In this document: positions 24,436 to 60,715 of the stretch, piece by piece
Numbering within the stretch: the first letter of the stretch is position 1
How the letters are laid out: each line of letters starts with the position of its first letter
Source: Octopus vulgaris
Taxonomy: Eukaryota
Direction of reading: 5' to 3'
DNA: 64,000 nt
Assembly: GCA_951406725.2 (NCBI GenBank)
Contig: OX597838.1
Span: forward strand, 13,578,001 to 13,642,000
Notes under the pieces: model-generated
The model's input: the letters and a program-made list of their open reading frames with translations, nothing else
What the model was told of the DNA's origin: nothing
The model's database searches: none
Translations under genes and position numbers: made by a program

Positions 24436-24774
24436 ATGGTTACTTTATTGCCGCCTCTGCCCATCTTACGGCGATGCTTGCCCCACGTTTTCTTTCTCTC
24501 GTCTTTCTTCTTCTTCTTTGTAAATTGTTCCACTGATGGAAGAACAACAACGAAAGGAATCGTCATACGGCACTTACTGTCGCAGACGGCGGCCACGGAC
24601 TTGGACGGCAGGAGTTCGCACCCGACCGAAGAAGCCCCAGTTGGTCTACTAGTCAGCACCGCTGCCGCCTCTGCTACCACCATTACTACTACAACCACCA
24701 CACCCGCCGACGTTAATGCGGGTGGTGATAGCGCTTGGGGTGGGATTTGGCCCAGGAACCACTTCGAAGGTGTG
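24436..24774 (+). CDS. Matrix metalloproteinase-like protein exon 1 (signal peptide and Thr/Ala-rich extension)
   Basis: caaATGG start; hydrophobic HVFFLSSFFFFFVNC; donor GTG/GTAAGT; phase 0, joins NYLIRYGYL. Confidence 0.8.
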
Positions 24775-27946: not shown

Positions 27947-28073
27947 AATTATCTAATACGGTATGGTTACCTCCATCCTGGCTATGGGTGGTTCCTTGGC
28001 AATACTGAAGCCAAGATTGAACTTCAAGCTGCTCTCCAGAGATACCAAAGAGTTGCAGGAATAACAGTTACAG
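27947..28073 (+). CDS. MMP exon 2 (pro-domain)
   Basis: ttttattctAG ... G/GTTAGA; NYLIRYGYL...LQAALQRYQRVAGITVT(G), the MMP pro-domain signature YLxxYGYL...G.xTG. Confidence 0.92.
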
Positions 28074-33105: not shown

Positions 33106-33237
33106 GTTTCTTTGATGAAAATACATTTAAAATGATGAGGAAAAAACGATGTGGTGTTCCAGATATGAATTATGCACCAAGTTTAGGCCTGAGAGAAGCT
33201 ATTTCTCCACGTCGCAAGCGAAGATTTGCTTTACAAG
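33106..33237 (+). CDS. MMP exon 3 (cysteine switch and furin site)
   Basis: FFDENTFKMMRKKRCGVPD...SPRRKRRFALQ; canonical AG/GT boundaries. Confidence 0.95.
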
Positions 33238-34544: not shown

Positions 34545-34645
34545 GGTCAAAGTGGAAGCATCGTGAAATTACATACAAGGTCAGTGACTATCCCCAAAAC
34601 CTGTCCCACCATGACGTGGATGCTACCATAAACGCTGCATTCAAG
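34545..34645 (+). CDS. MMP exon 4 (start of catalytic domain)
   Basis: GSKWKHREITYKVSDYPQNLSHHDVDATINAAFK; donor AAG/GTAAGA. Confidence 0.95.
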
Positions 34646-36530: not shown

Positions 36531-36762
36531 GTTTGGAGCAACATAACATTTCTACAGTTTACGTGGAAGCCAAGGGATATTGTAGACATCAACATCCGGT
36601 TCCTGTCTGGTAACCATGGTGACGGGATGCCATTCGATGGGCCAGATGGAATCACAGCTCATGCTTTCTTCCCAAATAGCAACAACGATGACTTCGATGG
36701 AGACATTCATTTTGATGCTGAAGAAAACTGGGTGCTGAGTAACAAAGCTGACCAAAAATCAG
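36531..36762 (+). CDS. MMP exon 5 (structural Zn/Ca ligands)
   Basis: VWSNITFLQF...HGDGMPFDGPDGITAHAFFP...GDIHFDAEENW. Confidence 0.96.
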
Positions 36763-37921: not shown

Positions 37922-38064
37922 TGCTGGGGCACCGCCATTTGCTGGGGCACCACCATTTGCTGGGGCACCGCCATTTGCTGGGGCACCGCCATTTACTGGG
38001 GCACCGCCATTTGCTGGGGCACCGCCATTTGCTGGGGCACCGCCATTTGCTGGGGCACCGCCAT
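37922..38064. repeat. 18-bp minisatellite (TGCTGGGGCACCGCCATT)x8 derived from a SINE-A tail
   Basis: The unit matches the SINE segment GGCCATGCTGGGGCACCGCC seen at about 9750 and 11740. Confidence 0.92.
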
Positions 38065-38204
38065 ATGTCTGTCTTTTAAATAGATGTCATGACTTTTTCA
38101 TGATGTAATTGTCTCAATTCGCCAAACAACAAAAGGTTCAACTAAAAATATTGTTAATTGTTATATTGATTAATTAACCTGTTGTTTTTTTTTTTTTGTA
38201 AAAG

Positions 38205-38363
38205 GTCAGATCAGTCTACTGTGTCAAGCGATCCACCAAATTGGTCACTCATTAGGATTATTCCACTCTGAGAGCATTTCAGCACAAATGTGGCCATACA
38301 TCATGGAATGCAATGGTACTTCAGTGCATGCTGATGACATTCAAGCACTACAGTCACTCTACA
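38205..38363 (+). CDS. MMP exon 6 (zinc-binding helix with Glu-to-Gln change, Met-turn)
   Basis: QISLLCQAIHQIGHSLGLFHSESISAQMWPYIMECNGTSVHADDIQALQSLY; acceptor tttgtaaaAG, donor A/GTAAGT; not in the ORF track. Confidence 0.95.
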
Positions 38364-38644
38364 GTAAGTATAGCATCTGCATCACCTACCTCTTCTACAA
38401 CAGCCTCTGCTATGTTGGACGTAAGTTATAACAGCCTATCTTGTCGATGTTAAATAACTGATGACTTGTTTCATGAAGATAAAATTTTATGAGAAACATT
38501 TCCCTTAACCCTTTCGTTACTGTATCTATTTTGAGATGCTCTGTGTTTCTTTCAATTACTTTAAAAATAACAAAGAATTTAGTTTACAATAAATACTGCA
38601 AAGCTAATTCATAATTTTGAATATGTTATATTTTCAATCAACAG

Positions 38645-39001
38645 GTCCCTCTGAGGGCATCCAAACTGCAGTTTCTAGTAATATGTCAACCAACAAGGAT
38701 GAGAACTTTGAAGATGACCATTCAGGGTCACAGGGTTCAAGTTCAACGACAGCCAGCAGCTCCCACTTGACCAGCCCATCGATGTCAGCTGGGGACAGAT
38801 TCTGGTGGACTCACAGCCAAGACACACAGACAGAACGACAAACCTATCCATATTGGTACCGTTTCTCCAGACTGGGGCCATCAACGACCTCACCCTCGGC
38901 CTTACTGACATCAGCTCAAACTACAGTTAGGCCAAAGTACTGTGATGGCAGATTGGATGCGATCACTGTTGCAACAGATCACCTGACCTATGGATTTAGA
39001 G
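38645..39001 (+). CDS. MMP exon 7 (long Ser/Thr linker and start of hemopexin)
   Basis: PSEGIQTAVSS...VRPKYCDGRLDAITVATDHLTYGFR; phases are consistent with both neighbours. Confidence 0.92.
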
Positions 39002-40442: not shown

Positions 40443-40600
40443 ATGAACTGGTGTTCAGGTTTAACCAGATCAATGTTGATTACACATTTCCAAAGAAAAT
40501 TCAAGAAGTCTTCCCCAGGGGTCCTTTGTCTGTAGATGCTGCAGTGACCTTCAGTAAAAATCGAAAGAAAGCAGCCCTTGGTAGCACATACCTGATAAAA
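40443..40600 (+). CDS. MMP exon 8 (hemopexin)
   Basis: ELVFRFNQINVDYTFPKKIQEVFPRGPLSVDAAV...TYLIK; donor AAA/GTGAGT. Confidence 0.93.
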
Positions 40601-42573: not shown

Positions 42574-42721
42574 GGCAACCTAGTTTGGCGCTACAGACAC
42601 ACAGAGGACGGTTTCCAACTGGAACACTTCTATCCAAAACCCTGGGCCAAAGAATGGGATGTAACTGGTACCAAAATTGAATCAGCCTTTAAATTAGGCC
42701 GGAAAATCTACCTGTTAATTG
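42574..42721 (+). CDS. MMP exon 9 (hemopexin)
   Basis: GNLVWRY...FYPKPWAKEW...IESAFKLGRKIYLLI; donor G/GTGAGT. Confidence 0.93.
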
Positions 42722-43721: not shown

Positions 43722-44026
43722 ACAATCGAATCTGGTTGTTGAAAGGCAAGAAATCTCGTCAACGGAAGTATGAGAAGAAGCGAATTAAACTGTTCAACCA
43801 GCTGCCAGACTTCCAGGCTGCAGTACAATGGATCAACAGGAATACCTATTTCTTCACTGGCAATGAGTATTACAGAGCTGACTTGCCAGCACAGAGGAGA
43901 CGATATGTACTGAATGGACCGAGGGATACAGCTTATTGGTGGTTTGGCTGTAATGAAATACCACACATACGGCAACCTTTCGAAGATAAAGATGATAACG
44001 GGTGGGATCTTGAACTGACTAAATAA
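43722..44026 (+). CDS. MMP exon 10 (hemopexin end, stop); total CDS 2058 nt, 685 aa
   Basis: NRIWLL...FQAAVQWINRNTYFFTGNEYYR...WWFGC...ELTK-stop; WFGC is the closing Cys of the hemopexin disulfide; no TM or GPI tail. Confidence 0.93.
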
Positions 44027-46449: not shown

Positions 46450-47432
46450 AGAAGAATCAAAGATAAAGCATTATACAAGAAATTGAAAATGAATGAAACA
46501 GAAAATAGGCAAAAATAATCAAAGGTAAAGCACTGTACAAGAAATAGAAAATTGAAAACGAATGAAATTGAAAATAGGTGGGTAAAGAAAAGAATGCATG
46601 GTCAAATTCATAGGGATGTTGAAGATAAGACAGACAGAGAAAAAAGATGGCTGTGGATGACTAAAAGTAATGTAAAACCAGAAACGGAAGCTCTAATCTG
46701 TGCTGCCCAAGAGCAAGCACTAAGAACTAACTACATAAAATACAGAATAGACAACACAGCAGAAGGTGGTAAGTGCAGAATCTGTGGACAAAACAGTGAA
46801 GCCATATGGTATATTACCAGCCAATGTGCGCCACAAGCCCAGAAGGAATATAAGAGATGCCACAACAATATAACCAGACTTGTCCATTGGACACTTTGCA
46901 ACAAGTATGGACTTGACAGAGCAAAAAATTGGTACGACCACAAACCTAAAGGCATTGTCGAAAATAGAAATGCAAAGATCCTATGGGATTTTCTGATTCA
47001 GTGTGACCATGAGATTGCGAATAGGAAGCTGGACATAGTCTTAATTGAAAAAGAAAACAATGTTGGATCATAGACATAGCATCCCCAGCTGACAACAGGG
47101 TATGTGATAAGGAAGAAAGAAAAGTCGAGAGATATGATAGGTTAGCTTGGGAAGTTAAGCAGTTATGTTCGATGAAAAATGTAGCAGTAGTACCAATAAT
47201 TGTCGGAGCCCTGAGAACAGTGATCAAAAATCTCAAGAAGTACGTGGAACAAACAAGGGCTGTAATAAGGGTGGAGCACTTGCAGAAAACAGCTCTGCTT
47301 GGAATTGCTCGAATACTCTGGAAGGTGCATGAAAAATAAGAGGTGTTACCTTAGTTCACTGATAGTGGACAACTGACACTGAAGCACACCTCCAGCATTA
47401 GAAGCTGTGCAAAGGCAATAATAATAATAATA
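46450..47432 (+). mobile_element. 5'-truncated R4/Dong-clade non-LTR retrotransposon (RLE type)
   Basis: MHGQ...ETEALICAAQEQALRT...CRICG (zinc knuckle)...ILWDF...RKLDIV, then after a frameshift IIDIASP...K...VVPIIVGAL; lies between (AAT)n tracts, the known Dong-type target. Confidence 0.88.
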
Positions 47433-60284: not shown

Positions 60285-60321
60285 TAAATATAGCATATAT
60301 ATATATATATATATATGCTTG

Positions 60322-60715
60322 TGAAGACGCTCGACCTTTATTCTCTAGAAAAACGCCGACGCCTTGGTGATCTCATTCTTGCTCACAACATCATAAGCGG
60401 AAAGTGTAACCTCTCGAAAGAGCTGTTCTTCACTCCTGCTCCAGAGCGTCGGCTGCGGGGTCATTCCGAAAAGCTCTATCTGCAACTATTTCATCTCAAT
60501 CGAAGGAGAGGAGCTTTCTCTGTCCGGGTTGCGGATCCGTGGAATAAGCTGCCGGACGAGATAGTGAAGATGCCGACGACCGCTCGGTTCAAAGTCTCTC
60601 TTGACCAGAAATGGCCTGAACTCTTTGCATGAACACCACCCTGTACATAACTCCATGTTCCCCTACATGGCCTTGCTTTTTTGCTTTTTGAGCCAAAAAA
60701 TTAACTAACTAACTA
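60322..60715 (+). mobile_element. CR1-group LINE 3' end
   Basis: [16 protein letters not shown]...RLRGHS...FSVRVADPWNKLP, followed by a (CTAA)n tail. Confidence 0.88.

Follow-up and report, generated by a model that had tools for sequence, protein, structure and literature searches.

A conserved coleoid matrix metalloproteinase paralogue with glutamine for the catalytic glutamate: a likely pseudo-enzyme with a possible hemopexin-based binding role

Introduction

The glutamate of the zinc motif is described as the general base/acid of metzincins (PMC9848320), and an Octopus vulgaris gene for a matrix metalloproteinase (MMP) in which this residue is replaced by glutamine creates a puzzle: Is the product still a protease and, if not, what has the gene been kept for? 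The question reaches beyond this locus. Non-catalytic roles of active MMPs have been reviewed (PMC13326533). Work on them mostly relies on engineered mutants of otherwise active enzymes, where cutting is hard to separate from binding. In a natural and long-conserved MMP without its general base, the binding function would stand alone, and the surfaces responsible for it could be recognised. Here we analyse the gene, called the HQ gene after its motif, within the window, that is, the whole stretch of 64,000 nucleotides of contig OX597838.1, together with its orthologues and relatives.

The gene and its glutamine codon

A sequence-only reading of this DNA had described ten in-frame exons without stops, and this description holds: the ten-exon model has GT-AG introns and 2058 nt without internal stop, while its 685-aa product shows 0 differences from the database protein CAI9740650.1 (P0048; Octopus vulgaris, 'collagenase 3-like'). 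Pfam recognises PG_binding_1, Peptidase_M10 (PF00413, E=5e-45, residues 202-363) and Hemopexin (PF00045) domains in this product, distributed over the exons as listed in table 1. The motifs named previously are all found, namely the cysteine switch, the RRKRR site, the HGD, AHA and DIHFD elements, Met339 and the Cys463/Cys661 pair, with the qualification that the switch reads KRCGVPD and not the canonical PRCGxPD; the catalytic-zinc ligands His321, His325 and His331 are present on motif inspection. The broader statement that everything apart from the glutamate is preserved stands for the zinc ligands, Met-turn, switch and furin motif, but not for substrate-contact positions, which differ from the consensus of Glu-bearing proteins, and it had missed an extra cysteine pair, Cys317/Cys346.

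The AlphaFold model (mean pLDDT 71) has high confidence in the pro, catalytic and hemopexin folds, the last being a confident beta-rich domain at residues 461-661, and pLDDT <50 for most of residues 21-102 and for 370-457 and 664-685. The top Foldseek matches are MMPs, with rmsd of ~2 Å to the catalytic domains of MMP-8, -12 and -13 and with PDB 1eak among the matches; an ESM Atlas search with residues 405-685 gave just generic hemopexin clusters, under 0.9. When hydropathy alone is profiled, the highest peak (1.95) lies near the N-terminus, at residue 15, and none of the top five peaks is C-terminal. Secretion of the protein is predicted solely from this N-terminal hydrophobic stretch.

Table 1. 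Features of the HQ gene in the window, with the evidence for each where given
Feature	Position	Strand	Basis
Exon 1: start codon, hydrophobic leader (~residues 14-32, likely signal peptide), Thr/Ala-rich low-complexity stretch	24436..24774	+	model and hydropathy
Exon 2: pro-domain, PG_binding_1-like region	27947..28073	+	model and Pfam
Exon 3: cysteine switch KRCGVPD (33144-33164, Cys171), furin-type site RRKRR (33210-33224)	33106..33237	+	
Exon 4: catalytic (Peptidase_M10) domain begins	34545..34645	+	model and Pfam
Exon 5: structural-zinc ligands His262 (36615), Asp264, His277, His293; edge strand with Thr275	36531..36762	+	
Exon 6: active-site helix, zinc motif, Met-turn Met339 (38288-38290), S1' loop	38205..38363	+	
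Exon 6, cysteines Cys317 and Cys346	38222-38224; 38309-38311	+	
Exon 6, zinc motif HQIGHSLGLFH (CAC CAA ATT GGT CAC TCA TTA GGA TTA TTC CAC)	38234-38266	+	
Exon 6, Gln322 (CAA) at the general-base Glu position	38237-38239	+	sequence; same in 7/7 runs and 16/16 motif-covering orthologue records
Exon 7: Ser/Thr-rich linker (predicted disordered); hemopexin start with Cys463 (38941-38943)	38645..39001	+	
Exon 7, linker aromatic islands DRFWW and TYPYWYRFSR, conserved	38794-38808; 38842-38871	+	
Exon 8: hemopexin domain	40443..40600	+	
Exon 9: hemopexin domain	42574..42721	+	
Exon 10: hemopexin end with basic loop, Cys661 (43949-43951), stop codon	43722..44026	+	
Exon 10, tail: conserved, hydrophilic, 22 aa, no apparent membrane anchor	within 43722..44026	+	

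As to the surroundings of the gene, intron 5 contains an 18-bp tandem repeat of ~8 copies with 96% identity (window 37922-38064), 140 bp 5' of exon 6, which holds the zinc motif. Two open stretches, at window 46519-47073 and 60294-60632, resemble what we take to be C-terminal fragments of non-LTR retroelement proteins. The remaining window is mostly occupied by SINE-like and simple repeats, with no further gene apparent.

The glutamine was proposed to replace the metzincin glutamate, and the window sequence bears this out. The same codon was then to be sought in reads and RNA-seq, for which contigs from 7 distinct runs of 7 studies, out of 24 runs listed, were available; contigs drop rare variants, and one of them (X1) may come from the source sample. 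The CAA codon has 0 differences in all seven runs aligned. Contig X1 has 0 differences over 38038-38414. Contigs X5 and X15 show 0 differences as well, and their sequence extends into exon 5 and exon 7. Contigs X2 and X11 cover exon 6 with 0 differences and skip both flanking introns at GT..AG, so that exon 5 is spliced to exon 6 and exon 6 to exon 7. Contigs X19 and X20, the latter from a second organism, differ only in introns and at the synonymous site 38317. Spliced contigs carrying CAA come from 4 of the 7 runs, their RNA origin being judged from splicing, with none of the runs listed recorded as RNA. The HQ gene is transcribed.

The notion that the glutamine reflects an assembly error, a private allele or a decaying pseudogene is left with a negligible probability; no supporting point was found. 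Error and private allele are ruled out by the run contigs and the orthologue records, given the same codon in runs of seven studies and HQ in five named species; the pseudogene is ruled out by the intact ten-exon model, with its open frame, and by the synonymous excess among listed variants that is described below.

Orthologues and age of the substitution

Is the glutamine fixed, and how old is it? Among 17 orthologue records retrieved, all 16 that cover the motif read HQIGHSLGLFH, so that the glutamine is fixed across octopods and a cuttlefish; the named species are O. vulgaris, O. sinensis, O. bimaculoides, Argonauta hians and Acanthosepion (Sepia) pharaonis. One cluster of records, around P0049, stands closest to the cuttlefish cluster. 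Since every motif-covering record has HQ, the change from Glu to Gln is likely to predate the split between octopus and cuttlefish, that is, the decabrachian-octobrachian divergence, placed at ~276.7 Ma (PMC13736915). The resulting ~277 Ma is a minimum age that assumes a single origin and rests on one named cuttlefish, the named set including no Nautilus, squid, cirrate or vampire-squid record. In the cuttlefish record P0320 (CAE1289724.1), the N-terminus is a long low-complexity stretch and the C-terminus a repeat, both apparently errors of annotation; the other records of its cluster present a clean protein of 643-644 aa.

The devices for latency and activation accompany the glutamine in octopods and cuttlefish. 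The cysteine switch reads KRCGVPD in O. vulgaris and PRCGVPD in the cuttlefish cluster. Maturation by furin, as claimed in the sequence-only reading, is plausible for octopods, which have RKRR, and for the cuttlefish cluster, which has RQKR, but the site of the P0049 cluster is a non-canonical TQKR.

Constraint on the catalytic and hemopexin domains

The listed coding differences in exons 5-7 amount to 13, of which 12 are synonymous and one is nonsynonymous (A400V, in the linker); within the catalytic domain all six are synonymous. This 12:1 partition, though an incomplete count covering listed differences only, has P ~1e-7 under neutrality (585 N and 162 S sites) and indicates that the HQ gene is under purifying selection. 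The catalytic domain is strongly conserved within Octopus, being identical to that of O. sinensis (169/169) and nearly so to that of O. bimaculoides (166/169).

Comparison of the two domains reveals an unusual pattern, which constitutes a new observation beyond the sequence-only reading. Between Octopus and the cuttlefish cluster, the catalytic domain retains 88/169 identical residues (52%) and the hemopexin domain 166/200 (83%), with a catalytic/hemopexin distance ratio of 3.9. The corresponding values are 138/169 (82%) and 193/201 (96%) for Octopus and Argonauta (ratio 5.2), and 139/169 (82%) and 192/200 (96%) for P0049 and the cuttlefish cluster (ratio 4.9). In contrast, the ratio lies at 0.22-1.36 in five hand-picked Glu-bearing pairs, with 0.26 for the related Haliotis pair. 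In a wider control of 1383 Glu-bearing pairs of 60-80% identity, drawn from 172 non-redundant HE proteins that are mostly arthropod, non-independent and projected on the columns of our query, catalytic minus hemopexin identity is +0.068 +/- 0.052 with a minimum of -0.113, versus -0.31 for Octopus and cuttlefish. By these alignments, constraint on the HQ gene is inverted with respect to Glu-bearing MMPs, its catalytic domain evolving 4-5 times faster than its hemopexin domain.

The substitutions fall in part near the substrate cleft. Compared with the consensus of the 172 HE proteins, the HQ protein has T275 for Leu (95%), Q318 for Val (87%), Q338 for Leu/Ile/Val (98%) and I343 for Tyr (91%). 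The consensus positions L275 (T/L/T/N), V318 (Q/L) and L338 (Q/Y) also drift among the orthologues, while A276 changes to Ser and D355 to His in both the cuttlefish cluster and P0049, and Met339 to Leu in P0049. All seven zinc ligands, namely His262, Asp264, His277, His293 and the three motif histidines, are invariant in the orthologues. Not every peculiarity is diagnostic, because loss of Tyr343 of the S1' site is common to Glu-bearing relatives, in which the Cys317/Cys346 pair is likewise present.

Outside the catalytic domain, the two aromatic islands of the linker and the 22-residue tail are kept between octopods and cuttlefish. The hemopexin domain has a net charge of +16 to +18, against a median of +5 (of 257), and the Glu-bearing relatives Lottia (+19) and Haliotis asinina (+13) share this basic character, which is therefore inherited and not a new adaptation. 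Polyanion binding by the domain is a lead only, suggested by this charge.

Relatives of the gene and recurrence of the substitution

The O. vulgaris genome contains at least 13 distinct MMP zinc motifs (drawn from 26 Pfam matches), and 12 of the 13 have Glu. In the careful 26-row tree, the five HQ rows group together (100/100) within a 12-row clade (95/94) that also holds Glu-bearing proteins of Lottia, Haliotis and the octopus genome itself (C6). This subfamily is marked by a Cys four residues before the first motif His and another Cys in the S1' loop; of the 24 motifs with either Cys among 334 database motifs, 22 have both. Such co-occurrence suggests that Cys317-Cys346 is a putative subfamily disulfide, which could link the active-site helix and the S1' specificity loop.

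The C6 paralogue (G000:C6:112.92-112.94 Mb; L012, L017, L028-L030) is Glu-bearing, has the same Cys pair and shows matching exon breaks in its catalytic region. A direct sister relationship with the HQ gene was considered for it and is unsupported (FastTree 0.37; fork open in the 26-row tree). Two other members of the subfamily, P0052 (Liolophura sinensis) and P0067, have records without the zinc-motif region, reflecting either a missed exon or true loss. Glu-bearing MMP genes also occur in clusters, four at G000:C25:9.63-9.75 Mb and three at C16:4.58-4.76 Mb; the HQ gene lies ~3.9 Mb from the C25 cluster.

The 329 proteins fetched contain 334 zinc motifs: 309 with Glu, 24 with Gln and one with Asp. 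Eight Gln records are non-coleoid and fall in four groups, namely unionid bivalves, Owenia fusiformis (P0055), P0185 and P0019. In the unionid pair, P0043 and P0329 (Sinanodonta and Potamilus), the cysteine switch is also altered, and domain by domain the two proteins share 93-97% identity. A quick 60-row tree requires 5 changes of state. A single ancient HQ origin shared with Owenia is judged unlikely: the quick tree separates the Owenia protein from those of coleoids, and the careful tree pairs it with the Glu-bearing P0134 (97/96), outside the 95/94 coleoid clade. An AU test on the quick 60-row tree did not reject a union of Owenia and coleoids (p 0.81); the constrained tree even scores 22.5 log-likelihood units higher than the free quick tree, so the free search was incomplete. 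On these trees, Owenia is likely to have acquired HQ independently of coleoids, and the four other HQ lineages, known from database records alone, apparently represent separate origins. The repeated swap of Glu to Gln in animal MMPs suggests an overlooked class.

Function of the HQ protein

By its architecture the HQ gene belongs to the MMP family, yet by its motif it lacks the general-base Glu that active MMPs possess. An essential catalytic residue is substituted, with the change fixed, in a gene that is transcribed and under purifying selection, as expected of a pseudoenzyme. For engineered MMP-9 E402Q, loss of activity with retention of the structure is reported, as is binding and neutralisation of TIMP-1 (PMC4224431). 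Because the motif Glu is the general base and this mutant is inactive, the HQ protein very likely has little or no proteolytic activity. The proposal of a pseudo-enzyme in the sequence-only reading, with inactivity deduced from engineered mutants of other MMPs, has gained strength from the fixed Gln, the splicing, purifying selection and drifting substrate-contact residues.

What, then, would be conserved? We regard as probable, with some reserve, that the gene encodes a spliced and conserved MMP paralogue with fixed Gln, likely non-proteolytic, predicted to be secreted and binding mainly via its hemopexin domain. A binding or adaptor role is preferred, since the hemopexin domain and short linear motifs are under the strongest selection. 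The sequence of events could have been as follows. A duplicate of a Glu-bearing molluscan MMP would have lost its general base before octopus and cuttlefish separated; its zinc-bound domain would have been retained as a folded module, leaving the substrate subsites free to drift; and its basic four-bladed propeller would attach to a matrix or cell-surface partner that is itself conserved, thereby tethering or shielding that partner, or competing for the sites of active MMP paralogues. Of the roles suggested previously, adaptor and substrate shield are favoured by the constraint on the hemopexin domain, whereas that of TIMP sink is less favoured, for the active-site surface varies between octopus and cuttlefish. 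Contrary to a binding protein, the catalytic domain is strongly conserved within Octopus, and octopods and cuttlefish retain the cysteine switch and furin site that normally control an enzyme.

These contrary points lend themselves to other readings. After furin has removed the pro-domain, the exposed zinc site might act as a non-proteolytic decoy that binds TIMP or traps substrate, sparing active MMPs. The TIMP-1 binding of MMP-9 E402Q speaks for such a role, as do the retention of all zinc ligands and of the cysteine switch and the furin site of octopods and cuttlefish. For cephalopods, a single canonical TIMP or none at all has been reported (PMC10755359), so that a single decoy could matter, and the genome has one TIMP-like match at the exon level (G000:C11:38353988-38354269, L032). 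However, the edge strand and S1' wall, surfaces that a TIMP would be expected to touch, vary from octopods to cuttlefish, against 83% identity in the hemopexin domain, and the furin site of the P0049 cluster is non-canonical; we thus deem the decoy unlikely. TIMP could instead bind the hemopexin domain, as in proMMP-2/9, and this would fall under the explanation of hemopexin binding. The same latency and activation devices, together with invariant catalytic-zinc His and a catalytic domain almost invariant within Octopus, would suit a slow or narrow protease that works with zinc-bound water without general base, or with a base relocated or supplied by the substrate. We find residual catalysis rather improbable in view of the role of Glu as the metzincin general base/acid (PMC9848320) and the loss of MMP-9 activity upon its change to Gln. 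Moreover, octopods and cuttlefish have no conserved acidic residue at the tabulated helix or S1' positions, one orthologue cluster has Leu in place of the Met-turn Met, and divergence is faster in the catalytic than in the hemopexin domain.

Could Glu be restored after transcription or translation, producing a switchable protease? Deamidation of Gln322 to Glu is chemically possible, and contigs, in dropping rare variants, could hide minor edited forms. The claim that A-to-I editing cannot restore Glu holds by the genetic code, however, as CAA can be turned into Arg or Gln codons only. CAA is also what four spliced contigs contain, and the drift of other active-site residues speaks against a maintained catalytic state, making restoration very improbable.

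Returning to a protein that binds via its hemopexin domain, we may extend the proposal into a tentative form, which could well be wrong: a dedicated pseudo-MMP that arose in the coleoid ancestor and has served for ~277 million years as a ligand or matrix adaptor by way of its hemopexin domain, and that is better supported than the other cases in a repeatedly evolved class of animal 'HQ' MMP pseudo-enzymes. If true, the gene would be a natural instance of separated function, in which MMP roles other than proteolysis stand by themselves, perhaps in connection with a tissue specific to coleoids.

Comparison with known systems

In the mostly open-access literature searched, no description of a natural Glu-less MMP or of this gene was found. 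No Glu-less member was seen in the accessible portions of echinoderm and planarian MMP papers; the accessible portion of the O. maya transcriptome paper has 'MMP-19' as its sole MMP mention, and MMPs are absent from the main text of the cuttlefish genome paper. The database names 'collagenase 3-like' and 'MMP14' for the HQ gene are labels of similarity that do not imply orthology; because of them, transcriptomes of cephalopod regeneration and wound healing may count the gene as a protease.

The natural frame of comparison is formed by furin-activated secreted hemopexin MMPs (Peptidase_M10 plus Hemopexin), which we take to be MEROPS M10A and of which human MMP-21 and MMP-28 are examples. These proteins and the HQ protein share the cysteine switch of the pro-domain, the RX[K/R]R site and the M10 fold with its Met-turn, three zinc His and structural-zinc ligands; both have a hemopexin propeller flanked by a Cys pair and, to judge by its hydropathy, the HQ protein probably also lacks a membrane anchor. 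It differs by Gln for Glu, a hemopexin domain more conserved than the catalytic one, the extra Cys317/Cys346 and a long linker with conserved aromatic motifs. The furin-activated architecture is described elsewhere (PMC13326533). Molluscan MMPs with the Cys pair (Lottia P0051, Haliotis P0053/P0081/P0199 and the C6 paralogue) belong to the same clade as the HQ protein but keep Glu and, in the Haliotis pair, have the catalytic domain more conserved than hemopexin.

Engineered MMP-9 E402Q and proMMP-2 E404Q have the identical swap with the fold kept (PDB 1eak), but on otherwise intact active sites, whereas the coleoid protein has further substitutions in its substrate subsites. Crabbe et al. in 1994 reportedly dealt with Glu mutants of gelatinase A. 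Where the Glu of zincins is replaced, Gln is described as its most frequent substitute (PMC3650047), and ADAM15 of frog and birds has a natural change from Glu to Gln that is predicted to be non-proteolytic (PMC4550289). That swap in the metzincin motif is the same as in the HQ protein and is fixed in lineages, although ADAM15 is a membrane-anchored adamalysin with a disintegrin domain, whereas the HQ protein is an MMP, predicted to be soluble, with a hemopexin domain. Hence, the HQ gene is not a new kind of system, as inactive ADAMs with the same substitution are already known.
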